The translations under genes were made by a program, and so were the position numbers. DNA of 64,000 nt from Gemmatales bacterium. GTDB taxonomy: Bacteria > Planctomycetota > Planctomycetia > Gemmatales > HRBIN36. The notes beneath the pieces are model-generated. The model was not told where the DNA came from. It did not search any database and saw only the letters and a program-made list of their open reading frames with translations. Below are positions 20,589-58,510 of this stretch, piece after piece; positions within the stretch are counted from its first letter, which is position 1, and each line of letters begins with the position of its first letter. The DNA is taken from contig JBEPZY010000001.1 in assembly GCA_041640595.1 (NCBI GenBank), positions 320,001-384,000 on the forward strand. The letters are read 5' to 3'.

Positions 20589-21195
20589 ATGTGGATGCCT
20601 TCCATCGCGTAGTGCTTGCCCTCTGCGGAGCCCAGGCCGCCAAGACTCTCAGCCGGGACGATGTAGATGCTTCCCATCGCGTAGTACTTGCCGGCCGTCA
20701 GGCGCAAGTCAGCAAGACTCCCTGTCGAGAGGCAAATGCAGATGCATCCGGTCGGCTAATGATAAGCCCTCGCCAGGGGCAGGCCAGCAAGGCTCCCAGT
20801 CGGGGGCGGTGTAGATGTATCCGGTCGCCTAGTGCTTGTCTCCTGCCAAGCCAGCAAGACTCTCAGTCGAGAGGCAATGGAGATATATCCGGTTGCCTAA
20901 TGATAAGCCCTCGCCAGGGGCAGGCCAGCAAGGCTCCCAGTCGGGGGCGGTGTAGATGTATCCGGTCGCCTAGTGCTTGTCTCCTGCCAAGCCAGCAAGA
21001 CTCTCAGTCGAGAGGCAATGGAGATATATCCGGTTGCCTAATGATAAGCCCTCGCCAGGGGCAGGCCAGCAAGGCTCCCAGTCGGGGGCGGTATAGATGT
21101 ATCCGGTCGCCTGGTGCTTGTATCCTGCCAAGCCAAGTCAGGAAGACTGCCAGTCGAGAGGCAATGTAGATGCATCCGCTCGGCTAATGCTTGCT
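20589..21195. repeat. Tandem array of ~67-75-bp related units with a 141-bp higher-order repeat
   Basis: About 9 units starting (A/G)TGYAGATG...; the 141-bp dimer recurs at 20761, 20902 and 21043. Confidence 0.8.
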
Positions 21196-36564: not shown

Positions 36565-36854
36565 GTGCGAGATGACAGCGGGTTACTTTCTACGCGGGCC
36601 TACGGATACGGTCACGAAGGCAGTCATCCATGGAATCGCCCAGCTCCGTTACTCCCGTAAGTCGGTATAGCTCCCGCGGTGCAACCCGAGCGCTTCTCGA
36701 GGGTTGCTGCGCATGGATTTTCCTGACCCGGTCTCGCGTTCCTACGAAACCAATCAAGCACCGGTTGGCGCCATTGAAAGGGGCCCCGATAGCTGGTGCA
36801 GAAACAGCGTCGCGGGTAGGAAAATTTTTGTCACATCGAACGGTCATCTTGCGT
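36565..36854 (+). ncRNA. Putative structured RNA between cas2 and the RT
   Basis: 12-bp closing stem 36565-76/36843-54 plus at least four nested stems read by eye; starts GTGCG. Confidence 0.45.
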
Positions 36855-36903
36855 TATCTAGGAGGAAGGAAAGTCAACCCATCACACGAAAGGATGCCTA
36901 GCC

Positions 36904-38556
36904 ATGCCAGCGATGAACGGCCAACCAGTGATTGAGGTGTTACCACGGGTTTATCGGAGTATTCCCGCTCCCCAGCGAGCTCTGGAAGAGCTGCAGGCAG
37001 AGCTTTACGCAGAGGTACGGGCGAAAGGTCGGCCCGTCGGCCAACTGGTAACTGCTCTGCTCGACCGCCGCAACTTGTACGCTGCCTGGCGATTTGTCCG
37101 GAATGCCGATGGTGCTGACACCCCGGGGCCGGATGGCCTGACTTGCAAGGACCTGGAACAATCGGCGGATTCCGGGGATGCTTTGCATCGCTTGTTCGAA
37201 CAGATTAGCCGGGACATACTTGATGGCCGTTATTGTCCGCAACCGCCGCGCTGGGTAGAGGTTCCCAAGCCTAATGGTGGTACTCGGCGTTTGGGCATCC
37301 TGACGGTGCGGGATCGCCTTGTGCATGCCGCTCTCAAAAACGTTCTCGAACCTATCCTGGAGCCGATTTTTACTTCCGCCAGCTTTGGTTTTCGACCGGG
37401 GAGAAGCACCACTGCTGCTTTGCTGGCGGCCATTAGATGGGCCGGCCCAGATGATCACGGCCGGCTCGTTTATCCCTATGCCATGCATCTGGATATCGAG
37501 GACTGTTTCGACACCATAGACCACCAGCATCTGTTCAGCGCCCTTTCCGAGCATGTTGCCGATGCTATCGTCCTGAAGCTTCTTCGCAAGCTGTTGGAAG
37601 CCTGTGCCCATTCGGTGCGTCGCTGGTTTCGCACTTACTACGTTGGGCTGTTGCAGGGAAGTGTGCTTTCGCCGCTTTTATGCAATTTGGCTCTGCACTC
37701 CCTCGACAAGGTTATGCTCAACATGCGCAGCGCCACCCAGAAGGGTATCGCTTATTTCCGTTATGCGGACGACTTACTCATCCTGGCTCGCAGCGAAGAG
37801 CTGGCAGTCAAGGCTTTTCGTTCTGCCAGCGCTTTTTTGCAGAGCATCGGACAGCGCTTCAAGGCCCGCAAACCGGAAATCGCTCTCCTCACTCGCGGTG
37901 TCGAATGGCTTGGCATGCGTATCTGCGTCACCGTCAATCCCTGGACCTCGAAACTTCAGCCCGGTTACTACATTCCAGATGCCTGTGTGGCCGAGATGGT
38001 CCAACGCCTTCAGGAAATGACCGTTCCTCCCAGTGCTAAGCTATCGGAGCAAACCTTCGACCTCCGCCAATGGATCATATCTATCAACCGGCAGTTGCAA
38101 GGCTGGCACAATGCCTATCAATACGCCGAGAATTTTTACCAGGTGGCCCGTACACTCGATGACGTTGTTCAGCAGCGGTTCGAAGAGCTTCTGATGGCTG
38201 TCACCGGCAAAGGGCGTCAGTACGTACGGGGCACTTATCGGGTTCGTTTGCCCCGCGGATTCACGACTTGGCAGGTAGATGGGGAGCAGTTGCTGGTGCT
38301 ATCGTCCAAGCCGCCGCATTTCCCCAATCCGAAACTGCTCTACCAACGACCCGCCTGGATGCGTGCTCCGCAGAACGCCATCCTACCGCAAGCCAACGCT
38401 GGCCAGACGCCATTCTGGTTGAACAATTTGCCTCAGCAGGCTCTGCCTCAGCCGCAAGCCCAACCGCCGAATGCCTTTGCTAACCCTCAGGATACCACAA
38501 ATCAACCTGGGCCCCCCACAGGAACTAATCCGGCCACCGGTCAGCACAATCCCTAA
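36904..38556 (+). CDS. CRISPR-associated reverse transcriptase (group II intron-like, stand-alone)
   Basis: TPGPDG, PKPNGGTRRLGILTVRDRLVH, SFGFRPGRS, LDIEDCFDTIDH, QGSVLSPLLCN, RYADD; thumb-like INRQLQGW; P/Q-rich tail. Confidence 0.93.
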   Translation: MPAMNGQPVIEVLPRVYRSIPAPQRALEELQAELYAEVRAKGRPVGQLVTALLDRRNLYAAWRFVRNADGADTPGPDGLTCKDLEQSADSGDALHRLFEQISRDILDGRYCPQPPRWVEVPKPNGGTRRLGILTVRDRLVHAALKNVLEPILEPIFTSASFGFRPGRSTTAALLAAIRWAGPDDHGRLVYPYAMHLDIEDCFDTIDHQHLFSALSEHVADAIVLKLLRKLLEACAHSVRRWFRTYYVGLLQGSVLSPLLCNLALHSLDKVMLNMRSATQKGIAYFRYADDLLILARSEELAVKAFRSASAFLQSIGQRFKARKPEIALLTRGVEWLGMRICVTVNPWTSKLQPGYYIPDACVAEMVQRLQEMTVPPSAKLSEQTFDLRQWIISINRQLQGWHNAYQYAENFYQVARTLDDVVQQRFEELLMAVTGKGRQYVRGTYRVRLPRGFTTWQVDGEQLLVLSSKPPHFPNPKLLYQRPAWMRAPQNAILPQANAGQTPFWLNNLPQQALPQPQAQPPNAFANPQDTTNQPGPPTGTNPATGQHNP

Positions 38557-38588: not shown

Positions 38589-39617
38589 ATGGCGAAGCAC
38601 ATCACCTACGTGCAAACCCCGGTTGCCCATGTGGTCGGACCAGGCAAACTTAGGATTATCAACGGCCGCCTAGCTTTCACCACGGGCAACGGTACTCCCC
38701 TGCGCCTTGACCTCAACACTTTGCGTGCCATTTACTGCTACGGCAACGTCGGGGCAACTGATGAGGCGATACAACTGCTTTTTCAGCACGGCATTGACGT
38801 CGTTTGGCTTTCTCCAGCAGGTAACGAGTGTCGCGGACGACTCGTCCGCTACGATTCCAGCTCCGCTGCTTTGCGGATGATACAGCATCGCGTTTTGGCC
38901 CATCCACCCGCTCGACTGGAACTGGCCCGCTTCATCGTCCAGGCCAAAATTGAATCCCAAATGAAGGCCGCCAGGCATTATCAGCGCCAGGGGCTTTCTA
39001 TTGCCGGCAAATTCATCGAACAACTTCAGTCCGTTTTGGCTATGCTGCCCAGCGTGGCCTCTCTGGACGCCCTTCGTGGCTTTGAAGGACAGGCCTCCGC
39101 TCTCTGGTACGAGCTTTTCTCCCAGCTTCTTGTTCCCCCGTGGACCTTCCCTGGCCGCAACCGCAGACCACCTACAGACCCAGTCAATGCCTTGCTTAGC
39201 CTCGGCTACACCTTGCTCTTCCGCCGCACAGAGGCTAGAACCGAAGCTCACGGCTTGGAAGTCGCTCTGGGAGCTTTGCATGAATTCCGACACGGCCGAC
39301 CTTCCCTGGCCTGTGACTTTGTGGAGCCGTTTCGCGTCCCCGCTGTCGACCGATGGGTCCTGACTATTTGCAATCAACACCGCCTGCAGCCCCAACATTT
39401 CCAAAATACCCCGGAAGGTATCCGTTTGACCCCTGACATGTTTCCTCGTATCATTGCTTCGTGGGAACAACATTTCGTATCTCACGGTTTTGAACGCTCT
39501 TTGGAAAACTGCCTTCAGCAATGGATAAGCATCCTACGGTCCTGGGCGAACCGCTTGCCTGACCCCCTTTTGCCACCCCAGGACAGTGCACCCCCAGGCA
39601 ACACCGTAACTTCCTGA
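38589..39617 (+). CDS. cas1: CRISPR-associated endonuclease Cas1
   Basis: LRGFEG, RNRRPPTDPVNALLSLGY, GALH, LACDFVEPFR; AGGAGG RBS. Confidence 0.96.
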   Translation: MAKHITYVQTPVAHVVGPGKLRIINGRLAFTTGNGTPLRLDLNTLRAIYCYGNVGATDEAIQLLFQHGIDVVWLSPAGNECRGRLVRYDSSSAALRMIQHRVLAHPPARLELARFIVQAKIESQMKAARHYQRQGLSIAGKFIEQLQSVLAMLPSVASLDALRGFEGQASALWYELFSQLLVPPWTFPGRNRRPPTDPVNALLSLGYTLLFRRTEARTEAHGLEVALGALHEFRHGRPSLACDFVEPFRVPAVDRWVLTICNQHRLQPQHFQNTPEGIRLTPDMFPRIIASWEQHFVSHGFERSLENCLQQWISILRSWANRLPDPLLPPQDSAPPGNTVTS

Positions 39618-39748
39618 ACGCAAAACACTTACGTGCAAAAATGTCCTTACTGACAAAGCATCTCAACAAGCCTTTTCGTCGGGATGTCATACCGCTAGGC
39701 AGTTTCCGTTCTTATGTTCCGGCCCATTCGAGCGTTGCGCCCGCCAGA
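39618..39748 (+). promoter_or_regulatory. CRISPR leader
   Basis: Non-coding segment between cas1 and the first repeat; the opposite array end is degenerate. Confidence 0.7.
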
Positions 39749-42700
39749 CTCGCAACTTAGACCCCAACCAATAGGGGATTGAAACGATAGCGGCTACTAC
39801 CATTGTTCCTCCCTCCTTGGGCTCGCAACTTAGACCCCAACCAATAGGGGATTGAAACGCCGGGCCCTGGCCTTCCGGCTGGAGACCAGGGCCAGCTCGC
39901 AACTTAGACCCCAACCAATAGGGGATTGAAACAGTTCTGATGAGAAAGTTATACCCGCCGGCGTAGATGCTCGCAACTTAGACCCCAACCAATAGGGGAT
40001 TGAAACTGCATCTGTTGGCAAAGACTATCAATACCTTTAGAAACTCGCAACTTAGACCCCAACCAATAGGGGATTGAAACCGCCAGGGTTCCGGCCTGTA
40101 TCCGCGCTGCCGCCCCAGCCTCGCAACTTAGACCCCAACCAATAGGGGATTGAAACACTCGCAAGACGGGTATTGGCCTGTATCCGCGCTGCCGCCTCGC
40201 AACTTAGACCCCAACCAATAGGGGATTGAAACGACACTGCTGCCCCAGCAATAATCATGTCCAACCACCTCGCAACTTAGACCCCAACCAATAGGGGATT
40301 GAAACGTCGAAACTACTTCTTGCCCCGCCGCCCCCGCCCGGCTCGCAACTTAGACCCCAACCAATAGGGGATTGAAACCACTGCTGCCCCAGCAATAATC
40401 ATGTCCAACCACCTCCTCGCAACTTAGACCCCAACCAATAGGGGATTGAAACAATCATGTCCAACCACCTCCTTGGGCCCGTTGATAAACTCGCAACTTA
40501 GACCCCAACCAATAGGGGATTGAAACGGTGCGAGGCAGCTACTTCTTGTTTTTGCTACGCCCGCCTCGCAACTTAGACCCCAACCAATAGGGGATTGAAA
40601 CTGAACTTGCACCCTAAGCTTTTCCAGCTCCGCCAGACTCGCAACTTAGACCCCAACCAATAGGGGATTGAAACCATTGCGGCTCCGGCTATCATACTCC
40701 CCTCCTTTGGGCTCGCAACTTAGACCCCAACCAATAGGGGATTGAAACCTCCGGCTATCATACTCCCCTCCTTTGGGCCGAATAACTCGCAACTTAGACC
40801 CCAACCAATAGGGGATTGAAACAATCCGACAATGATGGATACTAGGCAGATTGCGGCTCTCGCAACTTAGACCCCAACCAATAGGGGATTGAAACCACAC
40901 AAACAACAACATCTTGGATAACCTTTGGTAACTCGCAACTTAGACCCCAACCAATAGGGGATTGAAACACCAACCAAACCTCCGATGCCGCCACGCATTC
41001 CCGGCTCGCAACTTAGACCCCAACCAATAGGGGATTGAAACAGCAGACGACCCCTGGCCGGACTCGATGAGTTGCATGACTCGCAACTTAGACCCCAACC
41101 AATAGGGGATTGAAACAGTATCCAACCAAGAATTACACTGACCAGTGCCAAACTCGCAACTTAGACCCCAACCAATAGGGGATTGAAACAATGACCATCT
41201 AACACTTTACCTTCATAAAGACAACCTCGCAACTTAGACCCCAACCAATAGGGGATTGAAACACCGTAGACGCCGAGGATGAGAGGCCTAAGCATTCAAT
41301 CTCGCAACTTAGACCCCAACCAATAGGGGATTGAAACCAAAGACGAGGCCTGCGGCTCCTCACTGGTCCACCCCTCGCAACTTAGACCCCAACCAATAGG
41401 GGATTGAAACACATTTCGTCAGAATCTGTTTGCCCCAACATTAACGCCTCGCAACTTAGACCCCAACCAATAGGGGATTGAAACGGCCAGGAGGAATCCG
41501 ACTAGCACAGATACTAAGGACTCGCAACTTAGACCCCAACCAATAGGGGATTGAAACACTGCCGCGCCGACAACAATCATAATTCTCCCCTCCTCTCGCA
41601 ACTTAGACCCCAACCAATAGGGGATTGAAACCAACGAATTTTGCAAAATTGGTAACGCAGTTTCCAAACTCGCAACTTAGACCCCAACCAATAGGGGATT
41701 GAAACGCGGGCGATGCGGGCCAGTATGAACCCGAGGAGGACCTCGCAACTTAGACCCCAACCAATAGGGGATTGAAACCCCGAGGAGGACAGAAACGAGA
41801 GAAATGCCAGCGCCCTCGCAACTTAGACCCCAACCAATAGGGGATTGAAACGTCTTCTTGGCCCGGGGCTCCCGCCGGGCCCGGCGGGCCTCGCAACTTA
41901 GACCCCAACCAATAGGGGATTGAAACATCATGTCCTCTCCTCCTGCGTCTGGGGCCCGTTGATCTCGCAACTTAGACCCCAACCAATAGGGGATTGAAAC
42001 CGGGCGATGGCCCTGTCGACGGAACTTACGGATCTGCACTCGCAACTTAGACCCCAACCAATAGGGGATTGAAACAGTGGTGCCCGCGCTTCCGCCGCAG
42101 AAGCGCGCCGACCTCGCAACTTAGACCCCAACCAATAGGGGATTGAAACGGGCACTCCAATTGAAGTGGTGCCCGCGCTTCCGCCGCCTCGCAACTTAGA
42201 CCCCAACCAATAGGGGATTGAAACCTTCCCGGCGTCCGCCGCCTGCGGCTCCCCACTGGGCCTCGCAACTTAGACCCCAACCAATAGGGGATTGAAACTT
42301 GCCCGCCGCGGGCCTCGTCAAAGACGAGGCCGCACTCGCAACTTAGACCCCAACCAATAGGGGATTGAAACATCGTTCATCAAACCCATCAACCAAATCC
42401 AACTCACAACTCGCAACTTAGACCCCAACCAATAGGGGATTGAAACAAAAGTACTGCGCCACGCGCTCCATATGGCTGCCTCCTCGCAACTTAGACCCCA
42501 ACCAATAGGGGATTGAAACATACCAGCTCCAACAATAATCATGTCCTCTCCTCCTCGCAACTTAGACCCCAACCAATAGGGGATTGAAACACCAGCTCCA
42601 ACAATAATCATGTCCTCTCCTCCTGCGCTCGCAACTTAGACCCCAACCAATAGGGGATTGAAACTTGCGGGTCTTGCCCCGCCGCCGCTCCCGCCGAGAC

Positions 42701-45700
42701 CTCGCAACTTAGACCCCAACCAATAGGGGATTGAAACCCCGATCAAGAGAGAGACCAAAGCAACCCCCGCCCCTCTCGCAACTTAGACCCCAACCAATAG
42801 GGGATTGAAACACGGCGCTATTTCTTGCGGGTCTTGCCCCGCCGCCGCTCTCGCAACTTAGACCCCAACCAATAGGGGATTGAAACGCCCGGGCCGCCGG
42901 GAGACCCGGATGCGGGCCAGGACACTCGCAACTTAGACCCCAACCAATAGGGGATTGAAACCTTACCTGCCTGTGGCGTGACGCTAAGTCTTGCGGCCTC
43001 GCAACTTAGACCCCAACCAATAGGGGATTGAAACCCGAGAACGACGGAAACGAGCGCTATTGTTGACCCGGCCTCGCAACTTAGACCCCAACCAATAGGG
43101 GATTGAAACCCCGGCTATCATACTCACCCTCCTGCGTTGCGTCTTTCTCGCAACTTAGACCCCAACCAATAGGGGATTGAAACTGAGCCGGCGGTACAAT
43201 TCCCGCCGGTCCTCGGTGGTCTCGCAACTTAGACCCCAACCAATAGGGGATTGAAACCCGGCTCCCCACTGGGCACTCCAACTGAAGTGGTGCCCGCCTC
43301 GCAACTTAGACCCCAACCAATAGGGGATTGAAACTGCTCCCAACACCATTTTTCTCCCCTCCATTTGGGCTCGCAACTTAGACCCCAACCAATAGGGGAT
43401 TGAAACTGTCCCGCCCGGGCCGCCGCCCCCGGCTGCTCCGGGCCTCGCAACTTAGACCCCAACCAATAGGGGATTGAAACCCATGTGGCGTGGCGGGTGT
43501 TAAGACTTGCGGCGGGTCTCGCAACTTAGACCCCAACCAATAGGGGATTGAAACGACGAGGCCGCAGTCAGGGCAGCGGCTGGCCTCCTCGGCTCGCAAC
43601 TTAGACCCCAACCAATAGGGGATTGAAACGGCGTCGACCGGGCGACCACCCGATCGGAATTTGTGGCTCGCAACTTAGACCCCAACCAATAGGGGATTGA
43701 AACGCGGTCAGATCGAAAAGAAAGGACAAAATTATAATCTCGCAACTTAGACCCCAACCAATAGGGGATTGAAACCCCCCCCGCGTTTACCGGCCTTCCT
43801 TGGCCGGTTGCCCCTCGCAACTTAGACCCCAACCAATAGGGGATTGAAACGCCAGTATGAATCCGACCAGGACCGAAATGATAGAAACTCGCAACTTAGA
43901 CCCCAACCAATAGGGGATTGAAACGACCAGGACCGAAATGATAGAAATGGAAGCTCCCAACAACTCGCAACTTAGACCCCAACCAATAGGGGATTGAAAC
44001 CCAACAACATTTTTTTCCTCCACATTTGGTTTTGGCCTCGCAACTTAGACCCCAACCAATAGGGGATTGAAACGATAGAAATGGAAGCTCCCAACAACAT
44101 TTTTTCCTCCCTCGCAACTTAGACCCCAACCAATAGGGGATTGAAACGCCGCTACAATGCGGCAAGGGCGTGGCCGTGCCACTCCTCGCAACTTAGACCC
44201 CAACCAATAGGGGATTGAAACGCGGGACAAGCGCAAGTAGCCGTCGTCACGATCTTTCTCGCAACTTAGACCCCAACCAATAGGGGATTGAAACAATGGC
44301 CGCTCCAGCAATAATCATATTCTCCCTCCATCTCGCAACTTAGACCCCAACCAATAGGGGATTGAAACAGCAATAATCATATTCTCCCTCCATTGGGCCA
44401 GTTGACTCGCAACTTAGACCCCAACCAATAGGGGATTGAAACACAGCGCAAGGCTGGATACTCAACGAAGCCGATGCACTCGCAACTTAGACCCCAACCA
44501 ATAGGGGATTGAAACACCCGGTTACGCCGAGTGAGCCGGCGATACAACTCCCCTCGCAACTTAGACCCCAACCAATAGGGGATTGAAACGGCCTGATGGG
44601 GTTTCCAGTCGCCATCCTGCCCGTGCCCTCGCAACTTAGACCCCAACCAATAGGGGATTGAAACAACTACCACGGCGGCCTGCCTCTGACCCCTAACCCA
44701 GCTCGCAACTTAGACCCCAACCAATAGGGGATTGAAACACGCCGAGTGAGCCGGCGATACAACTCCCGGCGGTCCTCGCAACTTAGACCCCAACCAATAG
44801 GGGATTGAAACTAGGCAGGCCTGATGGGGTTTCCAGTCGCCATCCTGCCTCGCAACTTAGACCCCAACCAATAGGGGATTGAAACAATAGACCTTGCGAT
44901 TAAGTCTGCGGAAGTTCTCATGCTCGCAACTTAGACCCCAACCAATAGGGGATTGAAACTTCTCGCCCGGCTCCTGGGCCTCCGGAGCCGGGCACTCGCA
45001 ACTTAGACCCCAACCAATAGGGGATTGAAACAACAGGTGACGGAACCCTAAACTTCTTCACCTTCGACTCGCAACTTAGACCCCAACCAATAGGGGATTG
45101 AAACACCTTCGACACTTTAACCTCAATGTTACCATCCAGGCTCGCAACTTAGACCCCAACCAATAGGGGATTGAAACTTAGCCTTCCGCAGGACTTCGTC
45201 CGGAACACGCAATCTCGCAACTTAGACCCCAACCAATAGGGGATTGAAACCGTCCCCCCACTACCCCGATGTAGTGGGGGCGGACACCTCGCAACTTAGA
45301 CCCCAACCAATAGGGGATTGAAACTCAAACAGGTGACGGAACCCTAAACTTCTTCACCTTCTCGCAACTTAGACCCCAACCAATAGGGGATTGAAACTGG
45401 CCATACATGCAAGGCGGCCACCTATGCCAGCCAACCTCGCAACTTAGACCCCAACCAATAGGGGATTGAAACCCGGAGCGGACCCGGGCTAGGATAAACC
45501 CAATCAGAACTCGCAACTTAGACCCCAACCAATAGGGGATTGAAACCCGCCGCCGCCCCCGGCTCTTGCCCCGGTCCCGCCGCCTCGCAACTTAGACCCC
45601 AACCAATAGGGGATTGAAACTCCCGGCGGCTCACTCGGAGGTTATCCGGGGCCTCCCTCTCGCAACTTAGACCCCAACCAATAGGGGATTGAAACCGCGG

Positions 45701-48700
45701 GGGCACGCTCGGTTCCTCCGAGTGAGCCGCCGGTCTCGCAACTTAGACCCCAACCAATAGGGGATTGAAACCGACCTTCCTTGGTCGGTTGCCCGCTGCG
45801 GCCCTCGTCCTCGCAACTTAGACCCCAACCAATAGGGGATTGAAACGCAGTCTGGGCAGCGGGTGGTCTCTTCCCTCAACGGCCCTCGCAACTTAGACCC
45901 CAACCAATAGGGGATTGAAACACCCGGGCAAGGATAAATCCGGTTAGCACTGAGATCACTCGCAACTTAGACCCCAACCAATAGGGGATTGAAACTCTTA
46001 CCCTCCATTTTTTGGTCCTTGGGGCCCGTTGACTCGCAACTTAGACCCCAACCAATAGGGGATTGAAACTCCACCGACGCGACTTCTGCACCTTTAAGCC
46101 CTCCTCCTCGCAACTTAGACCCCAACCAATAGGGGATTGAAACTGCTGCTCCGCCTGCTGCTGCTGCTGCTGCTCCCTCGCAACTTAGACCCCAACCAAT
46201 AGGGGATTGAAACAACTTCGATGTGACCACCATCCAGAAGAATCCTAGCACTCGCAACTTAGACCCCAACCAATAGGGGATTGAAACCGCAAAGCACATG
46301 AGATGTATTTGAAAAATCCTAAATCTCGCAACTTAGACCCCAACCAATAGGGGATTGAAACACTGCTGACCCTAGCAGCATCTTTCTCCTCCCTCATCTC
46401 GCAACTTAGACCCCAACCAATAGGGGATTGAAACTGTCCCGCCCGGTCCGCCGCCGGGCGAGGCGGGCCAGCTCGCAACTTAGACCCCAACCAATAGGGG
46501 ATTGAAACGCATCTTTCTCCTCCCTCATGGTCCTTGGGGCCCGTTCTCGCAACTTAGACCCCAACCAATAGGGGATTGAAACAGCATCTTTCTCCTCCCT
46601 CATGGTCCTTGGGGCCCGTTCTCGCAACTTAGACCCCAACCAATAGGGGATTGAAACATCACCCAATTACAAATAGCCGCCGGGATTCTTTCCCCTCGCA
46701 ACTTAGACCCCAACCAATAGGGGATTGAAACGACTTGCCCTGCTGAGGCTCGTCGAAGACGAGCCGGCACTCGCAACTTAGACCCCAACCAATAGGGGAT
46801 TGAAACGAGGTACTCGCAGGACGGGTATTGACCTGTATCCGCGCTCGCAACTTAGACCCCAACCAATAGGGGATTGAAACAGCGGGTGGCTTCCTCCGTC
46901 AACGGCCACCCGCAACGCTCGCAACTTAGACCCCAACCAATAGGGGATTGAAACGGAACGCACGAAACGCACGCAAACCATCCTCTAAACCTCGCAACTT
47001 AGACCCCAACCAATAGGGGATTGAAACAACGCCAGGAAACCTGCCCGTGCGGTGGGCCGCCCTCCTCGCAACTTAGACCCCAACCAATAGGGGATTGAAA
47101 CCGCTATTTCTTGCGGGTCTTGCGCCCCCGCCCCCGGCCTCGCAACTTAGACCCCAACCAATAGGGGATTGAAACAGTAAGATCGCTCTCGAAAGTCAAT
47201 CGCGATGTCCGCCTCGCAACTTAGACCCCAACCAATAGGGGATTGAAACGACAGTAACTCCATCGTTCCGGCAAACTACTTGGTACTCGCAACTTAGACC
47301 CCAACCAATAGGGGATTGAAACGATTCTTGCTCCGCCGACCCCGCCGACCCCGCCGGAGCTCGCAACTTAGACCCCAACCAATAGGGGATTGAAACACTC
47401 TTCGATGTCCTGTACGGGCCTGATGGCACCACCTCGCAACTTAGACCCCAACCAATAGGGGATTGAAACCACCCCTTCTCGCCCGGCTCCTGGGCCTACG
47501 GCAGCCCTCGCAACTTAGACCCCAACCAATAGGGGATTGAAACCGCGATGTCCGCCTCTTCTGGGTTTTCGTCATCCCAACTCGCAACTTAGACCCCAAC
47601 CAATAGGGGATTGAAACGGAATTTATCCTTTTCATTTTCCATAACCTCCTCAAACTCGCAACTTAGACCCCAACCAATAGGGGATTGAAACCTATTAAGA
47701 TGAGGTCGTAATATTACGTTTACGTGCCTCGCAACTTAGACCCCAACCAATAGGGGATTGAAACTTTTTTGAGTAAGATCGCTCTCGAAAGTCAATCGCG
47801 CTCGCAACTTAGACCCCAACCAATAGGGGATTGAAACCTTCGTCCCTTTTCGGCCCATCCTTCTCGCCCGGCTCCTCGCAACTTAGACCCCAACCAATAG
47901 GGGATTGAAACTCAGGAGCCGGGCAAAGTCCGACCCCCGCTACCCCGCTCGCAACTTAGACCCCAACCAATAGGGGATTGAAACGTTCCTTCCTAACATT
48001 ATCTTCTGGTTCGTGTTTTTCGCTCGCAACTTAGACCCCAACCAATAGGGGATTGAAACTTTTATAACTGCTACACGGACCACGGCCTTCCCTCCTTCTC
48101 GCAACTTAGACCCCAACCAATAGGGGATTGAAACCCTGTGGCGGGCGGCTACGACTTCTTGCGCTTCTTCTTCTCGCAACTTAGACCCCAACCAATAGGG
48201 GATTGAAACCACTACCATTCCTACACCTCCTTCCTTTGGTTTTGGCTCGCAACTTAGACCCCAACCAATAGGGGATTGAAACCCCGGGAGATTGGTCTTT
48301 GCCGCCGGGCCCGGGCCAGCCTCGCAACTTAGACCCCAACCAATAGGGGAATTGAAACGCCCATAACATTTCTCTTTCCTCCTGGTCTTTGGGGCCCTCG
48401 CAACTTAGACCCCAACCAATAGGGGATTGAAACGACCACGCCCCCGCCCGGGCCACCGGGAGACCCGGGCCTCGCAACTTAGACCCCAACCAATAGGGGA
48501 TTGAAACCATTTCTCTTTCCTCCTGGTCTTTGGGGCCCGAATACTCGCAACTTAGACCCCAACCAATAGGGGATTGAAACTGACAGCTGCCCATAACATT
48601 TCTCTTTCCTCCTGGTCCTCGCAACTTAGACCCCAACCAATAGGGGATTGAAACGGCCCGGGCGGGGGCGTGGTCTTTGGGGCCCGAATAAACTCGCAAC

Positions 48701-51700
48701 TTAGACCCCAACCAATAGGGGATTGAAACAACATTTCTCTTTCCTCCTGGTCTTTGGGGCCCGAATCTCGCAACTTAGACCCCAACCAATAGGGGATTGA
48801 AACGTAGTACTTTGCGTAGTGCATAATATCCCTCCTATAGCCTCGCAACTTAGACCCCAACCAATAGGGGATTGAAACAACGATAACTTCATAAACGCCG
48901 GATTTTTCAACAAACTCGCAACTTAGACCCCAACCAATAGGGGATTGAAACAGAACACAAACGTTTCAAACTTTGATTTAACCCAGTCTCGCAACTTAGA
49001 CCCCAACCAATAGGGGATTGAAACGACAGACAGCTGCTCCTAGCATGTCCATTTCCTCCGCTCGCAACTTAGACCCCAACCAATAGGGGATTGAAACACC
49101 TGGCGGGTGCGAGGCTAAGTCTTGCGCTTTTTTCTCGCAACTTAGACCCCAACCAATAGGGGATTGAAACTCCGTCTTTGGGGCCCGTTGATAAGACCCC
49201 TCCCTACTCGCAACTTAGACCCCAACCAATAGGGGATTGAAACGCTCTTGTCCCGCTCCCGGCGGGTCCGGGCCCGGCGCTCGCAACTTAGACCCCAACC
49301 AATAGGGGATTGAAACATAATTCCCGGCGGTCCTCGACATCGACCTGCCGGACCTCGCAACTTAGACCCCAACCAATAGGGGATTGAAACGCTGTGGGGC
49401 TAAGGCGGAAACCCCACAATCCTGCCTCGCAACTTAGACCCCAACCAATAGGGGATTGAAACGACGCGGGCAAGCAGGAATCCAATTAGGACGGAGGCCT
49501 CGCAACTTAGACCCCAACCAATAGGGGATTGAAACTCCTGTTACTTCTGAAAGAGTTTCCAGTCGACAAAACCTCGCAACTTAGACCCCAACCAATAGGG
49601 GATTGAAACCGCTTGGACCTGTTCTTGCTGAGGTTGATCAGCTTGCTCGCAACTTAGACCCCAACCAATAGGGGATTGAAACACTACCATTTCCCTTTTT
49701 TAGGAGTTGAAGCTGACCAAACTCGCAACTTAGACCCCAACCAATAGGGGATTGAAACTATAATACCCTCTATAAGGCTTGGCATGGGCCTTAATCCTCG
49801 CAACTTAGACCCCAACCAATAGGGGATTGAAACTCGGCGGGCCGCTTTTCTTTGGAGGGAACGCCGGTCCTCGCAACTTAGACCCCAACCAATAGGGGAT
49901 TGAAACAGAAATGGCCGCTCCGGCTATCATATTTCCTCCCTCCCTCGCAACTTAGACCCCAACCAATAGGGGATTGAAACACTATGTCCCTTCCGTGATA
50001 GAGGTACTCGCAGGACGGCTCGCAACTTAGACCCCAACCAATAGGGGATTGAAACGGCTAAGGCGGAAACCCCACAATCCTGCCTCTGGGCCTCGCAACT
50101 TAGACCCCAACCAATAGGGGATTGAAACCCTCGTCCGTCAACGGCCACCCGCAACGGGGGCACTATGCTCGCAACTTAGACCCCAACCAATAGGGGATTG
50201 AAACGGCCAATGCCGGGTAGATTGTATCTAACGCCACGGGCCTCGCAACTTAGACCCCAACCAATAGGGGATTGAAACACAGGTACACTTTATCAAACCC
50301 GTACTCCTTGCCTTTCTCGCAACTTAGACCCCAACCAATAGGGGATTGAAACGACGCCGTCTGCTACGCGGGGGCTACCGGGCTCCGGCCTCGCAACTTA
50401 GACCCCAACCAATAGGGGATTGAAACACTGGACAACCGGCTCGAACTTCAAGCCAAGACTGGCCTCGCAACTTAGACCCCAACCAATAGGGGATTGAAAC
50501 GTCCGTCAACGGCCACCCGCAACGGGGGCATGCCCGGCTCGCAACTTAGACCCCAACCAATAGGGGATTGAAACGACGTGGCCGCCGGACCCGTCGGATA
50601 TGGCCGCCGTCCTCGCAACTTAGACCCCAACCAATAGGGGATTGAAACGCAATCGCCTTGGGCACCACGGGACGTGGCCGCCGGACTCGCAACTTAGACC
50701 CCAACCAATAGGGGATTGAAACTCCATTTTAATGCCCACGCGGCAATCGCCTTGGGCACCTCGCAACTTAGACCCCAACCAATAGGGGATTGAAACACAA
50801 CGGAAACAATTGCTATGACTGATCTGGCTATCTCGCAACTTAGACCCCAACCAATAGGGGATTGAAACGTTATCCAGATCAACAACCTCAACCTCACAAC
50901 TTCCCTCGCAACTTAGACCCCAACCAATAGGGGATTGAAACTAATGTGTAGTCTCTCATCAGGTTGAATGCCACATTTCTCGCAACTTAGACCCCAACCA
51001 ATAGGGGATTGAAACGTGAAGCTGCGGCTTGTCATATTTGACCTCCTTTCTAACTCGCAACTTAGACCCCAACCAATAGGGGATTGAAACACCGAAACGA
51101 TTGCTACTGCTGCTCCTATAACCATAACTCGCAACTTAGACCCCAACCAATAGGGGATTGAAACGCTGCTCCTATAACCATAATTTCCTCCTGCGTCTTT
51201 CTCGCAACTTAGACCCCAACCAATAGGGGATTGAAACCCTGCCATCGGGCCATCCAGGCCATTGCGGCCCATGCCTCGCAACTTAGACCCCAACCAATAG
51301 GGGATTGAAACATATGAAACCGCATGGTAGAGTTGTTCATTTGCAGGCTCGCAACTTAGACCCCAACCAATAGGGGATTGAAACAATTACTTCAGCATAT
51401 CGCTCAATATATCGGACCATGCTCGCAACTTAGACCCCAACCAATAGGGGATTGAAACTCATATCCTCCCTCCATTATGGTTTGGGCCCGTTGACTCGCA
51501 ACTTAGACCCCAACCAATAGGGGATTGAAACAGCATAACATCTCATTAAGTGAACGCTCTTCCTAACCTCGCAACTTAGACCCCAACCAATAGGGGATTG
51601 AAACGCAAGGGCGTGGCCGTGCCACTCAGCCGGGTTCATACTCGCAACTTAGACCCCAACCAATAGGGGATTGAAACGCAGTCTGGGCAGCGGGTGGCTT

Positions 51701-54700
51701 CCTCGGTGAGAGGCCTCGCAACTTAGACCCCAACCAATAGGGGATTGAAACGGTTCATAGGCCGGAACCGGGAACCGGCCTCCCCCGACCTCGCAACTTA
51801 GACCCCAACCAATAGGGGATTGAAACGCCTGATGGGGTTTCCAGTCGCCATCCTGCCCGTGCCCTCGCAACTTAGACCCCAACCAATAGGGGATTGAAAC
51901 GCCCGGCTGAGTGGCACGGACAGGAGGCGCCGCCTTTCTCGCAACTTAGACCCCAACCAATAGGGGATTGAAACGGGTTCATAGGCCGGAACCGGGAACC
52001 GGCCTCCCCCGCTCGCAACTTAGACCCCAACCAATAGGGGATTGAAACCGTTCCTGCTTTCCCTCTATGTCCCTTCCGTGATAGAGGCTCGCAACTTAGA
52101 CCCCAACCAATAGGGGATTGAAACCGTGAACATTTACAGGAGTAAGGTCTTCACCACCTTCTCGCAACTTAGACCCCAACCAATAGGGGATTGAAACACC
52201 AGGGTCGGGTCGGTCCTCTCCCCTGGCCCGTAACCTCGCAACTTAGACCCCAACCAATAGGGGATTGAAACGTCGAAGACGAGCCCGCAGTCTGGGCAGC
52301 GGGTGGCCTCGCAACTTAGACCCCAACCAATAGGGGATTGAAACACGCGGGGGCTACCGGGCTCCGGCAGCCCGGGCCCCCCTCGCAACTTAGACCCCAA
52401 CCAATAGGGGATTGAAACCCCAGCGCGGAGCCGGGACCGTGGCCAACTACCACGGCCTCGCAACTTAGACCCCAACCAATAGGGGATTGAAACTTTCGGA
52501 GCTGTTGCTATTGATGTTTTCAATACTACTCGCAACTTAGACCCCAACCAATAGGGGATTGAAACCGTTGATGACCCCTCCTACCGGGCCGGCCCCATCG
52601 CCCTCGCAACTTAGACCCCAACCAATAGGGGATTGAAACAGCCTCCCGCCAGTACTCCCTATACCCGTGCGGTGAGCCTCGCAACTTAGACCCCAACCAA
52701 TAGGGGATTGAAACCCACGCCCCCCGCCCCCGCCGGGAGAGCAGGGCCAGGCTCGCAACTTAGACCCCAACCAATAGGGGATTGAAACGATAAATCTTGT
52801 TAAACTTAGCGTAACACCTCATCCTCGCAACTTAGACCCCAACCAATAGGGGATTGAAACCCCTGTGGCGGGCGGCTAAGACTTCTTGCGCCCCCGGCTC
52901 GCAACTTAGACCCCAACCAATAGGGGATTGAAACACGGGTATTGAACCTGTATCCGCGCTGCCGCCCCAGCCTCGCAACTTAGACCCCAACCAATAGGGG
53001 ATTGAAACGTCCTTAACAACCGACATAAACGGAATGCCCAAATACTCGCAACTTAGACCCCAACCAATAGGGGATTGAAACACTCTAACTGGATCATCCG
53101 AAAACGTAGCCAAAACCTCGCAACTTAGACCCCAACCAATAGGGGATTGAAACGCTTCCTCGGTGAGAGGCCACCCGCAGCGGGGGCACACCCTCGCAAC
53201 TTAGACCCCAACCAATAGGGGATTGAAACTAGCGAACGTGCAACTCTAACTGGATCATCCGAAAACCTCGCAACTTAGACCCCAACCAATAGGGGATTGA
53301 AACATCCGCGCTGCCGCCCCAGCGCGGAGCCGGGACCGTGCTCGCAACTTAGACCCCAACCAATAGGGGATTGAAACAGTTATCTCCCTGGGGTTTTGGT
53401 GAACTCCCGGCAGCCTCGCAACTTAGACCCCAACCAATAGGGGATTGAAACGTCCTTACCAGTCGGTGGCAATGGCTCGGGATTCACCTCGCAACTTAGA
53501 CCCCAACCAATAGGGGATTGAAACCCTGGGTTAAAAATGGGCACACAAAAAGGAGGCGCCCTCGCAACTTAGACCCCAACCAATAGGGGATTGAAACGGT
53601 CGTTATTAAGGTGAATACCACAAACGGTTCCAATACTCGCAACTTAGACCCCAACCAATAGGGGATTGAAACAGTAGTGAATTAACGGATGATCCGACAA
53701 ATCATCAACCTCGCAACTTAGACCCCAACCAATAGGGGATTGAAACCTCTCTTCTTTTGTTTTCTTGGTAGTTTTTGTCGAACTCGCAACTTAGACCCCA
53801 ACCAATAGGGGATTGAAACGCTGTTAGGCCGCCGTGGTTGGAGAAAGCATGAGCTCCTCGCAACTTAGACCCCAACCAATAGGGGATTGAAACACCCGCG
53901 GGGGCCGGCCTTCCCTGTGGCGGGTACGAGACTCGCAACTTAGACCCCAACCAATAGGGGATTGAAACGACGTGACGGCTAAGACTTCTTGCGCCCCCGC
54001 CGGGCTCGCAACTTAGACCCCAACCAATAGGGGATTGAAACAATAGCTATGACTGATCCTCCCAACATACCTCCCTCCTCGCAACTTAGACCCCAACCAA
54101 TAGGGGATTGAAACCGGGAGAGACTGGCGGCTGGTCTAGAACTGGCCCCGCTCTCGCAACTTAGACCCCAACCAATAGGGGATTGAAACCTGTGGCGGGT
54201 ACGGCTAAGACTTCTTGCGCCCCCGCCTCGCAACTTAGACCCCAACCAATAGGGGATTGAAACACTTTGTGAATGTGAGCTACCTCCATCCACGAATATC
54301 CTCGCAACTTAGACCCCAACCAATAGGGGATTGAAACACCGACCCGCGGGGGCCGGTCTTCCTGGCGGGTGCTCGCAACTTAGACCCCAACCAATAGGGG
54401 ATTGAAACTGTCTACATCCTCACTGCTTTCGTGAGGGTCCCAAACTCGCAACTTAGACCCCAACCAATAGGGGATTGAAACGCCACTTGAGGACCCAACA
54501 GCGAATTGGTGACGGGCTCGCAACTTAGACCCCAACCAATAGGGGATTGAAACCGGACCATGGCTATCCTCCTGTTTGGCCCGCCCTTCCTCGCAACTTA
54601 GACCCCAACCAATAGGGGATTGAAACTTCTCGCCCGGCTCCTGGGCCTCCGGCAGCCGGGCACTCGCAACTTAGACCCCAACCAATAGGGGATTGAAACA

Positions 54701-57700
54701 AGACCTCGTCCGGGATTTTCAGACTAAAGCCCCGAGCCTCGCAACTTAGACCCCAACCAATAGGGGATTGAAACTTCAACCCCGTTATCCAGGATAAGCT
54801 TTGCGAACCGGCTCGCAACTTAGACCCCAACCAATAGGGGATTGAAACCAATAAGAAAAGCGACTAACGTGTTTACCCAGAACTGTCTCGCAACTTAGAC
54901 CCCAACCAATAGGGGATTGAAACTATCTTTACGCATCTTTCCATATTTGTCCTCCCCTTTCTCGCAACTTAGACCCCAACCAATAGGGGATTGAAACAAT
55001 GCGGTGAGTGTGAAACTCGCAAAAACCCTAGAACTCGCAACTTAGACCCCAACCAATAGGGGATTGAAACTCTGGCAACTGGTCAGTTGGTCTCGGTTGG
55101 CTACATCTCGCAACTTAGACCCCAACCAATAGGGGATTGAAACATGATTGTAGCGACACGGACCATGGCTATCCTCCTTCTCGCAACTTAGACCCCAACC
55201 AATAGGGGATTGAAACACACGGATTTGCGGCAGGCTAATACTTAGCCTGCCTCTCGCAACTTAGACCCCAACCAATAGGGGATTGAAACAACCATACCTA
55301 AAAACTCACAAAACAGGTAGAACGGCTCGCAACTTAGACCCCAACCAATAGGGGATTGAAACGGCAACGCGATAGACATTTCACTCTGCAGATCCCAATC
55401 TCGCAACTTAGACCCCAACCAATAGGGGATTGAAACACCCCCACTACCCCGATGTAGCGGAGGGCGGACAACACTCGCAACTTAGACCCCAACCAATAGG
55501 GGATTGAAACGCCCGGCTCCTGGGCCTACGGCAGCCGGGCAAAGTCCCTCGCAACTTAGACCCCAACCAATAGGGGATTGAAACGGATTTGCGGCAGGCT
55601 AATACTTAGCCTGCCTCAGACTCGCAACTTAGACCCCAACCAATAGGGGATTGAAACGGCCCGGCGGTCGAAGGAGGTCTAACGACACTATATCTCGCAA
55701 CTTAGACCCCAACCAATAGGGGATTGAAACTATAGCCGTGGCTCGGCAGGGCAGGAGCGCTGGGAACTCGCAACTTAGACCCCAACCAATAGGGGATTGA
55801 AACTTAACCCAGTCAATAACGGTGCTAACGATTTCGGACTCGCAACTTAGACCCCAACCAATAGGGGATTGAAACAATGTCGAACAGATATTTCAAACTT
55901 CTCACCTTTAACCTCGCAACTTAGACCCCAACCAATAGGGGATTGAAACTCCTAGCGCATCGTTCCATGCCTGTCTCCCTGTTTGGCCTCGCAACTTAGA
56001 CCCCAACCAATAGGGGATTGAAACGAATTCCCGGTCAACATAAAGGCCATTGACCTCAATCTCTCGCAACTTAGACCCCAACCAATAGGGGATTGAAACA
56101 GCTGCGTTGGCTGTGTAGCCGCATGGCCACATGGCCTCGCAACTTAGACCCCAACCAATAGGGGATTGAAACGTCACGTCCTCTCCCTGTGGCGGGTGAC
56201 GACGGCTAACTCGCAACTTAGACCCCAACCAATAGGGGATTGAAACAATCCGATAAGAACGGATACAATAGCTATGGCCGACCTCGCAACTTAGACCCCA
56301 ACCAATAGGGGATTGAAACGAAAGAGTTTCAGCCAGTCGATAAAACTTTCATCAGTCTCGCAACTTAGACCCCAACCAATAGGGGATTGAAACTGCAGTC
56401 CTGAGAATGCACACAGCACATAGATCGTCCTCGCAACTTAGACCCCAACCAATAGGGGATTGAAACTGTGCTTTCATCCAATCAAGCACGAACTGACGCC
56501 ATCTCGCAACTTAGACCCCAACCAATAGGGGATTGAAACATCAAAAGAGTAATGTCTATTCAAAAGCCAACATACCCTCGCAACTTAGACCCCAACCAAT
56601 AGGGGATTGAAACCCAACAACGTTTTCAACCGTAGCAACGCGGGCGGTGCTCGCAACTTAGACCCCAACCAATAGGGGATTGAAACACTGCCGACCCTAA
56701 CATCTTCCATCTCCATTATGGTCTCGCAACTTAGACCCCAACCAATAGGGGATTGAAACGCCAGTCGATAAAACTTTCATCAGTAACTGGCCTACGAGCT
56801 CGCAACTTAGACCCCAACCAATAGGGGATTGAAACATACCATTGTTGAAATCAACCTGTTGACCTTGCTCCTCTCGCAACTTAGACCCCAACCAATAGGG
56901 GATTGAAACTCTTCCATCTCCATTATGGTCTTTGGGCCCGTTGATACTCGCAACTTAGACCCCAACCAATAGGGGATTGAAACCTTCATTACGATGGTGT
57001 GCTGCACGCCTGTTAACCTCGCAACTTAGACCCCAACCAATAGGGGATTGAAACACAGTTACTTTCCAGGACTCAACAGGGTTGTCCAACTCGCAACTTA
57101 GACCCCAACCAATAGGGGATTGAAACGGTTATTCTCTTGCGATTACGCCCCAGTGCGTAATCGCTCGCAACTTAGACCCCAACCAATAGGGGATTGAAAC
57201 AGTATCGCATGGCATTCCTCCTGTTCTTTTACCCTCTCGCAACTTAGACCCCAACCAATAGGGGATTGAAACTCCGAGCTTTTGGAACTTTCACCTCCAC
57301 GGTGCCATCTCGCAACTTAGACCCCAACCAATAGGGGATTGAAACCAATAGCTATGGCCGACCCTCCTAACATCTCTTTCCCTCGCAACTTAGACCCCAA
57401 CCAATAGGGGATTGAAACCTTGAACTTTACGTAACTTCTCAGGATGTGTAACTTTCTCGCAACTTAGACCCCAACCAATAGGGGATTGAAACCTGGCTGC
57501 TTCTTTAAGGGCTTCGATGCAAAAGCCCCTCGCAACTTAGACCCCAACCAATAGGGGATTGAAACGACTTGGATTTGGTTCTTTCTAGGCATAGTTTTAC
57601 CCTCGCAACTTAGACCCCAACCAATAGGGGATTGAAACCTACCACCAGGACGAGGAGGGAAAGCAGCACAAATACTCGCAACTTAGACCCCAACCAATAG

Positions 57701-57934
57701 GGGATTGAAACCCAACAACGTTTTCAACCGTAGCAACGCGGGCGGTGCTCGCAACTTAGACCCCAACCAATAGGGGATTGAAACACCGGCTTGGAGATAG
57801 CTCAGGCAGAACCGACCCGATCTCGCAACTTAGACCCCAACCAATAGGGGATTGAAACGACCGCGTCCGGACCCTGGCCAGAATAAAGCCGACCAGCCTC
57901 GCAACTTAGACCCCAACCAATAGGGGATTGAAAC
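39749..57934 (+). CRISPR. Giant CRISPR array, 37-bp repeat CTCGCAACTTAGACCCCAACCAATAGGGGATTGAAAC, ~245 repeats
   Basis: Near-invariant repeat with CCCC/GGGG stem and ATTGAAAC 3' end; spacers ~34-40 bp; one repeat with an extra A at 48321-48358. Count estimated from span / ~74 bp. Confidence 0.99.
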
Positions 57935-57970
57935 GGTAGGGTGGAGGATTAGCTGTAATGGCAGCTCTGC

Positions 57971-58510
57971 CTCGAATGGGAACTCTAACAAACAGGAGAT
58001 TGTTACTCTCTGTCTCTTCTTAAGAAGGATTGGTCAAGCTTGACCTTGCAACGTGAGCCCAACTGGCATGGAATTGTAACTTTCGTCACAGAAATCAAGA
58101 TTCCAAGATTGTCCACGTTGCAATTTTGTACATAACCAATAGGGGACGAAAATGACTTGGATGATGGGCACGCATAGTGCGAGGATTTCCGAGCACACAA
58201 GATGGAGTTCAACTAGCATGAGATCGAAAAACAAACGTATGCCGGGCTAGCGCTTAGGCTTCATGCGTACGTGATCGAGAACCATACGGTATTAGCCGTG
58301 TACTCATCATGTGAAGCGTCTCTATTATGGTTGTGCTGTCAACTTAAACGAACCAACAGGGGACTATGAACGGCTGGATAAAGATTGACGCCACCACTTG
58401 GCCTCGTCTCGTGACTTAGACATTAATCTATGGAAAACCGGAGTTAGTACGGTGTGAAGGCTTCGCCGCGTCTTGCCGGAAAATCAACTTGTACGTTGAG
58501 CAACAGGTTG
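57971..58510 (+). CRISPR. Degenerate trailer repeats of the array
   Basis: Decayed repeat copies at ~57971, 58045, 58117, 58335, 58408 and 58481 keep the ~73-bp phase. Confidence 0.6.

Follow-up and report, generated by a model that had tools for sequence, protein, structure and literature searches.

Many variants of one short foreign transcript recorded in a reverse transcriptase-linked CRISPR array of a Gemmatales bacterium

Which element supplied the spacers of a very large CRISPR array in a Gemmatales bacterium, and what did that element encode? The array fills positions 39748-57934 of the 64,000-nt stretch of contig JBEPZY010000001.1 analysed here (assembly GCA_041640595.1, positions 320,001 to 384,000 of the contig; this whole stretch is called the window), with a total of 247 repeats and 246 spacers, and it belongs to an adaptation module of reverse transcriptase (RT) plus Cas1. 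About a third of the spacers derive from numerous variants of a single short foreign transcript, some 200-230 nt long, with a conserved 5' end, a strong Shine-Dalgarno (SD) sequence in the leader, a small open reading frame (ORF) and a GC hairpin after the stop codon. The peptide gene on this transcript is real in the part encoding a hydrophobic helix, and it is probable in the part encoding a basic tail. The whole explanation, in which an RT-linked array copied many variants of a foreign short mRNA for a membrane peptide with a basic tail, is given a probability of about 0.6.

Spacer overlaps and the transcript read from them

The spacers overlap one another far beyond chance. Ungapped overlaps with a score of at least 11 numbered 127 on the same strand versus 6 on opposite strands, and the best score among 6000 shuffled spacer pairs was 9. 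In a local BLAST comparison among the spacers, 230 matches were on the same strand versus 22 on opposite strands, and only three of the latter reached 18 nt. Read as reverse complement, 79 of the 246 spacers could be assigned to the leader, the ORF or the 3' end of one transcript: 5 with leader only, 32 with the ribosome-binding site (RBS) and start codon, 15 from the helix, 23 from the tail or stop, 3 from the 3' untranslated part and 1 in the opposite orientation. These assignments and the reading frames were set by eye from frame tables, with about six of the tail assignments being less certain.

Near-identical overlapping pairs lay within five array positions of each other in 37 of 78 cases, versus 4 % for random pairs, and such clusters of same-variant spacers read as repeated episodes leaving two to five spacers each. 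By capture-recapture, the sequence space comes to about 2.5 kb, variants included, for the 79 peptide spacers and to the same for the 78 other GC-rich spacers, whereas 53 AT-rich spacers (GC below 0.46) overlap only once, which corresponds to a sequence space of more than 60 kb. Because of these contrasting sizes, two pools are seen to be recorded in the array, one of tiny and heavily re-sampled GC-rich transcripts and one large and ordinary.

Ten N-termini, each with an RBS and ATG, had been listed in a preliminary description of this DNA, and all ten were present in reverse-complemented spacers: MVVAAI (39786-39821), MIIAGAAV (40233-40268), MIAGAAM (40675-40711), MIVVGAA (41558-41594), MIIVGAG (42520-42553), MVLGA (43335-43369), MLLGASISI (Table 1), MIIAGAAI (44295-44331), MLLGSA (46362-46397) and MLWAAV (48581-48617). 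Six further N-termini were MLGAAVC, MIAGAAIS, MVIGAAVAIVS, MLGGSVIAI, MLGGSAIAI and MLGSA, and at least 14 are distinct at the amino-acid level. An SD 4-mer was found in 28 of the 29 start-codon spacers that have at least 10 nt upstream, and the remaining one is truncated, its neighbours showing the site of the same variant.

One variant is tiled from the RBS into the helix by four spacers (Table 1), with overlaps identical by eye in the layout. The hydrophobic helix is about 19 residues long and is followed by a tail of Arg, Lys and Gly. Six spacers of different variants each carry the end of the helix together with the first Arg residues (ARxR), such as VLLGFILARIAR, LVGFILARVRTR and ISVLTGFILAR; one of the six is given in Table 1 and the others are 57859-57897, 45473-45509, 45922-45958, 49463-49498 and 42887-42924. 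Judged by its codon statistics, the helix part is clearly coding and under purifying selection, since mismatches at codon positions 1, 2 and 3 were 155, 67 and 323 in 82 spacer pairs that are not independent. In the same non-independent pairs, 216 codon differences were synonymous and 198 non-synonymous, and 193 of the 198 were kept within the hydrophobic or small class.

Among the 341 residues of the N-terminal and helix spacers there was no D, E, K, N, Q, P, H or Y, and the sole charged residue was Arg (10 times), located at the tail junction. When these spacers were aligned on an invariant Ser, a stripe of small residues appeared with the pattern G-x3-S/A-x2-S-x3-G-x3-A (G in 4/4, S/A/C in 9/9, S in 11/11, G in 9/9 and A in 3/3 at -7, -3, 0, +4 and +8), a spacing that places them on one face of the helix.

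In the tail, 117 of 216 residues (54 %) are Arg or Lys. Eleven spacers contain codons rich in Lys and Arg and then TAG or TAA, one of them given in Table 1 and the others located at 40306-40341, 40527-40564, 42812-42849, 42962-42997, 43481-43517, 48135-48172, 49098-49133, 52861-52897, 53969-54004 and 54190-54226. The middles at 41485, 41706 and 57859 and the ends at 40306, 47102 and 53969 read just as the preliminary description had them, and its proposal that one small ORF encodes both a hydrophobic helix and a basic tail is borne out by the tiled overlaps, the six junction spacers, the fixed-distance stops and the helix codon statistics. The uniform length of 30-35 residues given there could not be kept, while the small size of the ORF could: it spans about 32-45 codons depending on the variant, with a tail of about 13-25 residues. 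A range is given instead of one length because some spacers suggest a short tail (41852-41889, ARRARREPRAKK then T) and others a longer one. The peptides had also been called a family; their many variants stand, but they are best read as variants of one gene of one unseen element in one host lineage instead of a widespread family.

The leader, likewise described before as conserved, could be anchored at its 5' end. The first bases of twelve spacers fall in the same 7 nt, at (T)TTATC/TTATTC, upstream of a GG(G)CCC anchor by 3-9 nt, and CCCGCCACAG is present in five spacers. Only two spacers (one in Table 1, and 52566-52602) cross this point from the upstream sequence ending in GGAGGGGTC. Because 12 spacers start within 7 nt and only two read through, the pile-up point is taken to mark an RNA 5' end, formed by transcription initiation or by processing. 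For the leader and N-terminal part, folding was on a par with shuffled sequence (z about 0), so the start site would be open to ribosomes, whereas neighbouring GC-rich targets fold better (z -5.8 for the region of a zinc-ribbon ORF and -4.0 for a two-hairpin region), all z-scores being taken from mononucleotide shuffles of mixed-variant consensus strings. At the other end, the distance from the stop codon to a conserved 3' motif is constant, and several stop spacers run into CCCGCCACAGG and then into the hairpin, to which spacers 54338-54371 and 56173-56209 are related. Between the 5' read-through spacers and the 3' hairpin, spacers provide a link of no more than 8-9 shared bases.

Copying from RNA would be in line with the strand bias of both comparisons, which selection alone can also give, with the 12 piled spacer ends and with two chimeric spacers. 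One chimera is described in Table 1; in the second (45621-45658), a leader-like end is joined to a piece of the zinc-ribbon ORF, with a 19-nt exact opposite-strand match. Both look like template switches of the RT at the RNA end.

Table 1. Position of the adaptation genes, the array and representative spacers in the window
Feature	Position	Strand	Remarks
Spacer with RBS, ATG and MLLGASISI	44074..44110	-	Tiled chain with 44001-44036, 43925-43963 and 43851-43887
Helix spacer, SIISVLVGFIL	43851..43887	-	
Helix-to-tail junction, VLLGFILARIAR	41706..41741	-	
Start of basic tail, LARLARRRTGRD	46435..46471	-	
Tail end and stop, RGRGRKTRKK then stop	47102..47138	-	
Only plainly opposite-oriented spacer of the peptide gene (tail and stop)	44222..44257	+	13-nt opposite-strand match to 56173-56209; orientation by frame reading
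Leader spacer from the apparent RNA 5' end (TTTATCAACGGGCCC...) via RBS to ATG	40453..40489	-	One of the 12 piled spacers
Leader spacer of another variant (TATTCGGGCCCCAAAGACCAGGAGG...ATG)	48508..48543	-	
Spacer through the 5' pile-up point (...GGAGGGGTC then TTATCAACGGGCCCC)	49171..49206	-	
3' untranslated hairpin (ACCCGC...GCGGGT)	53894..53931	-	-13.5 kcal/mol
Chimeric spacer, leader from its first base plus reverse complement of a tail piece	48655..48692	-	21-nt exact opposite-strand match to 48434-48470
One of 17 spacers tiling a second small ORF, zinc ribbon CPxCG...CPDCG	50501..50537	-	
CRISPR array, 247 repeats and 246 spacers	39748..57934	+	Repeat 3' end ATTGAAAC on + strand
Stand-alone RT of the adaptation module	36904..38556	+	Pfam RVT_1, E 1.6e-33
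cas1	38589..39617	+	Pfam Cas_Cas1, E 6e-74
ORF without Pfam match, with RT and cas1 directly upstream of the array	36630-36935		

The array, its adaptation module and other recorded targets

An exact search gave 246 identical copies of the 37-nt repeat between 39748 and 57934, and the 247th copy has a 1-nt insertion (about 48321-48358, inside 48283-48396). The spacers are 33-40 nt long across the array, and a period of 73-74 bp was reported by Tandem Repeats Finder over 39743-57712. The repeat is absent elsewhere in the 4.45-Mb host genome. With RT, cas1 and array adjacent, the locus has the context of RT-associated type III CRISPR. The Cas10-type effectors of such systems are encoded elsewhere in the genome and not beside the array, namely Cmr2 (contig C8:34680-36518, 285.9 bits) and Csm1 (contig C23:157-2451, 621.1 bits), both above the curated cut-off.

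The CRISPR RNA (crRNA) would correspond to the + strand, since the repeat ends in ATTGAAAC on this strand, in agreement with the 8-nt handle rule of Cas6-processed crRNAs, the cas genes lie on the + strand, and sub-threshold Rfam CRISPR-DR10 matches were found in the array on the + strand. The crRNAs would therefore be complementary to the reverse-complement strand, where the peptides are read, and thus antisense to the peptide mRNA. Type III systems need crRNAs of this orientation.

Duplication within the array was observed for two pairs of spacers, of which 56614-56649 and 57712-57747 are identical and lie 15 positions apart, and the adjacent 46509-46545 and 46583-46620 differ by one terminal base. 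Among contigs from a hot-spring metagenome run (X1), one has the upstream flank joined at about 40630, with the first 12 spacers missing, another has the downstream flank joined at about 57129, and a third skips 768 nt (43338-44107); these variants could be older, shorter arrays or repeat-to-repeat deletions. Outside the array, tandem repeats were found at 7326-7650 (92 nt, 3.5 copies, 97 %) and 20705-21189 (141 nt, 3.4 copies, 92 %).

Interleaved with the peptide spacers along the array are those of the zinc-ribbon ORF, which has a basic N-terminal part (e.g. DRRELYRRLTRR), followed by CPRCGWPLTEE...RCPDCGLVFDE and a stop. They include, besides the one in Table 1, 49317-49353, 43184-43220, 44739-44774, 44516-44552, 45696-45734, 53154-53192, 46881-46917, 52272-52307, 42299-42334 and 43776-43813. 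As read from the layout, the codons of WPLT show four synonymous differences between variants, and in one variant (50129-50167) a TAG stands just before the first Cys.

Several stretches rich in hairpins were also represented among the GC-rich targets. A hairpin of 9-10 bp with the loop ATCGGG occurs in 45251-45287, 55437-55473 and 47912-47947, where the pairing, as established by reading, is kept through G-U pairs and one compensatory change, and a second hairpin of 8 bp follows it (GCCCGGCT...AGCCGGGC). Five spacers from at least four variants (40081-40119, 52935-52971, 40157-40195, 53304-53340 and 46807-46843) have in common a 25-nt core without any change, GCTGGGGCGGCAGCGCGGATACAGG, which forms an 8-bp hairpin, whereas their flanks differ and include a 1-nt indel; a functional element of non-coding RNA is suggested by this pattern. 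An SD sequence with ATG was present in 41 of the 246 spacers, 11 of them outside the peptide class, such as MVRVATI (54554-54589 and 55144-55179) and MERC... (55950-55987 and 54924-54960).

Search for the source and competing explanations

The host genome contains no ATG-started ORF with the helix and basic-tail architecture, and outside the array it contains none of the junction, stop or hairpin motifs. Since no copy was found there, the peptide gene appears to be foreign to the host. Spacer matches in the host genome were 17-18-nt chance matches and one of 27 nt with two mismatches, the sole sizeable self-match, between spacer 57639-57674 and contig C15:1428-1454; this contig of the same assembly is 9.6 kb long and may be a mobile element. 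A leader-like match on host contig C4 was rejected as unrelated. Three genomes of the same genus (G004-G006) carry the repeat with 1-3 changes, but no sequence is shared between this array and 119 spacers obtained from 19 of their contigs (of about 270 repeats), and none of the three genomes contains the junction pattern. In G006, about 241 repeat copies are scattered over many contigs of 0.5-2 kb, and the spacers of the three genomes overlap mostly on one strand (7 versus 1).

Seven pattern scans of viral contigs (IMG/VR) with conserved 22-mers or degenerate patterns gave no match, and the two matches of one further scan were rejected as collagen-like repeats in phage fibre genes. An invariant 22-mer had no match in JGI metagenome contigs, where a degenerate pattern of the helix/Arg junction had at least 120; none of the 80 loci examined was a small ORF, and one of them (L102) was the end of this same array. 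The seven matches of a degenerate pattern in GTDB species genomes all lay inside ordinary larger frames and were rejected as chance. Megablast of the whole array against phage and plasmid records (72,556 PLSDB plasmid records) gave no match, and the zinc-ribbon pattern was found in 0 of the 401 planctomycete genomes searched. The hot-spring metagenome X1 was the only sequencing run with words of the array (10 % of the sampled words), and it held fragments of the array and no target; no RNA run was among those listed, which counts for neither side. By cmscan of 39600-58100 (E up to 10), sub-threshold CRISPR-repeat hits and two chance hits to lncRNAs were the only output, so that no ribozyme or other Rfam family was detected in the spacers, with low power on 36-nt pieces. 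The record of the peptide gene is so far private to this lineage, and its carrier would be an unsequenced virus or mobile element of a hot-spring planctomycete, with a DNA or RNA genome.

Several points weigh against the explanation by RT-based copying of an mRNA for a helix-and-tail peptide. The + strand crRNA is taken from the gene orientation, the handle rule and the sub-threshold Rfam hits, and selection in type III systems that have no RT would give a strand bias too. The tail shows no third-position excess (58/41/33 mismatches, with 8 synonymous and 79 non-synonymous differences, in 27 pairs), so either its composition is conserved and not its sequence, or else the tail alignments are poor; its frame follows from helix continuity, composition and stop codons only. 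In mid-tail, the pieces are linked by no more than 7-12 nt of overlap in CGG-rich Arg codons of low complexity, which makes length and continuity uncertain there. No variant was read end to end, and no protospacer contig was found in the collections searched. Each natural piece has at most 13 residues, and what the peptide does can only be proposed from such pieces.

These points would be taken furthest by the view that there is no single peptide gene, and that unrelated small hydrophobic and Arg-rich ORFs, or GC-rich RNA of low complexity, merely seem continuous. The short CGG-rich overlaps, the missing coding signature of the tail and the want of a contig confirming continuity all agree with it, but it is very improbable in the face of the overlaps, identical by eye, that tile the RBS into the helix, the six different junction spacers, the eleven stop spacers followed by the same family of 3' motifs, and the very strong codon bias of the helix.

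A more serious contender is a small and highly structured RNA replicon of about 1-2 kb (a satellite, a viroid-like or Obelisk-like circle, or a mini RNA virus) in a thermophilic planctomycete, which would encode the membrane/Arg peptide and the zinc-ribbon protein and from whose RNA the spacers were copied. It is nevertheless unlikely. The RT beside cas1, the small re-sampled size of both GC-rich sets against the large AT-rich pool, the strong folding of the neighbouring targets, the hairpin pairing kept by G-U and compensatory changes, the spacer ends piled up at one RNA end that two spacers cross, the two chimeras that resemble template switches at that end, and the absence of the conserved 22-mers and degenerate patterns from the DNA collections searched all speak for it. 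RT type III arrays of hot-spring Roseiflexus are also described, in the part of the preprint available, as matching viroid-like circles and partiti-like viruses (bioRxiv 10.1101/2022.07.19.500677). On the other hand, no ribozyme or Rfam family was detected in the 36-nt pieces, for which power is low, no polymerase or Oblin-like ORF could be recognised, and a circular form would be conjectural, as none of the spacers clearly links the leader with the 3' hairpin. Abundant short transcripts of a DNA element would look the same, and the folding scores have the limits of shuffled consensus strings given above. The idea of a hammerhead at the GTC that immediately precedes the 5' end point was rejected, as the GC-rich spacers have no CUGAUGA/GAAA core; the sole such string is in an unrelated AT-rich coding spacer.

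A broader form of this proposal is at best speculative, namely that the GC-rich two thirds of the array record a hairpin-dense RNA replicon of about 1-2 kb or less, whose most abundant or 5'-terminal RNA encodes a membrane-anchored, Arg-rich peptide of about 32-45 residues that tethers RNA or forms pores, with the zinc-ribbon protein beside it. If true, it would be a protein-coding viroid- or satellite-like agent of bacteria, known so far from CRISPR memory alone, and type III immunity would be driving its variants, of which at least 14 co-circulate.

The preliminary description had named coat proteins and type I toxins as two classes with the architecture of a hydrophobic helix plus basic tail, and the features that could be compared speak mildly against strict membership in either. 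Coats of filamentous phages (Ff g8p, Pf3) have an N-terminal segment that is exposed and mostly acidic, with a signal peptide in class I, then a hydrophobic helix with small packing residues, and a basic C-terminus, with 2-4 charges. A major coat or other virion protein of a filamentous (inovirus-like) or membrane-containing phage would hold its helix in the membrane before assembly and neutralise the packaged genome with its tail, and the peptide resembles these coats in outline, with a small-residue packing face on its helix and a basic end. Moreover, it belongs to by far the most sampled transcript, as for a very abundant structural mRNA, and all linked targets are on one strand, as in inovirus genomes. 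But in every N-terminus (at least 14) the hydrophobic run starts from residue 2, leaving neither an exposed segment nor a signal peptide, and the tail has several times more positive charges than these coats. No morphogenesis or replication gene could be recognised among the spacers, and inovirus DNA would be expected in DNA metagenomes and IMG/VR, where nothing matched. A virion protein is judged improbable.

Less probable still is a membrane-depolarising type I toxin of a plasmid or prophage, with its mRNA checked by an antisense RNA. Toxins such as Hok, Fst, TisB and Ldr-like peptides have fewer than 50 residues, one helix and short dedicated mRNAs. The small hydrophobic peptide resembles them in size and in its single helix with charged tail, and its short stand-alone mRNA has its own 5' end and 3' hairpin, but the tail is much more basic. 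Only one of about 79 spacers is plainly antisense (Table 1), where an RT-based recorder should sample an abundant antisense antitoxin, though a rare or trans-encoded one would escape; together with the lack of a copy in the host genome, this speaks mildly against a cis-antisense pair. A chromosomal, plasmid or prophage locus was found neither in the host genome, the plasmid records searched by megablast and the three sister genomes, nor by the GTDB pattern, and the RBS lies in unstructured RNA, unlike the occluded sites of type I toxin mRNAs.

Possible role of the peptide and meaning of the record

In the favoured explanation of a short foreign mRNA copied by the RT-linked array, the adaptation module would copy abundant foreign RNA into spacers, crRNAs would pair with the peptide mRNA, and the type III effectors encoded in trans would sense the transcript and trigger immunity. 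The element could then escape by diverging, and repeated infection by successive variants would give the series of variants, as in an arms race. By the positive-inside rule, the peptide would insert with the tail facing the cytoplasm and the N-terminus facing out, and it may oligomerise through the small-residue face.

A membrane-permeabilising role (holin, single-gene-lysis or toxin-like) is ranked first for the peptide, although it falls somewhat short of even odds; it fits the fast but conservative evolution, because such a function depends on physico-chemical character more than on sequence. The single-gene lysis protein phiX174 E, small holins and the 5'-proximal lysis peptide of the ssRNA phage AP205 are very small proteins with a membrane helix near the N-terminus and a basic, poorly conserved C-terminus. 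The peptide shares with them the membrane helix and charged C-terminal part, and its gene stands at the RNA 5' end as in AP205, but its helix begins at residue 2, its tail is far richer in Arg, and its transcript, judged by the sampling, would be very abundant, which transcripts of lysis genes seldom are. A membrane-anchored nucleic-acid-binding protein, coat- or assembly-like, is ranked second as a tentative possibility that fits the very heavy spacer sampling. Some other role would keep a substantial minority of the chances.

The kind of CRISPR system that made this record is known, and the small membrane peptide of an unseen element is new. In the sections available, the spacer sources of RT-linked type III arrays are called 'enigmatic' by Silas et al. 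2017 (PMC5513706), and those of hot-spring Roseiflexus match RNA replicons (bioRxiv 10.1101/2022.07.19.500677), while the accessible part of a hot-spring Obelisk paper reports no planctomycete link (PMC13096302). As far as these sources go, the present locus is like such arrays (PMC5513706; bioRxiv 10.1101/2022.07.19.500677) in its RT beside cas1, large array, hot-spring origin and spacers untraceable in DNA databases. It differs in that spacer overlap alone lets the target be read, as a coding short transcript with at least 14 variants, whereas the targets there were unfound or came from database matches.

The spacer sources of RT-linked arrays have been, by the available account, a long-standing puzzle (PMC5513706), and here the host genome itself was enough to reveal one target. 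An RNA 5' end, an RBS, a real small ORF, a 3' hairpin and many variants ordered along the array could be read, and this provides primers and probes with which the unseen element may be retrieved from the spring and its genome decided as RNA or DNA. The peptide is a simple object for testing, either as a pore former or as a membrane anchor for nucleic acid. In addition, the array offers a natural case of how type III immunity and its target gene chase each other.

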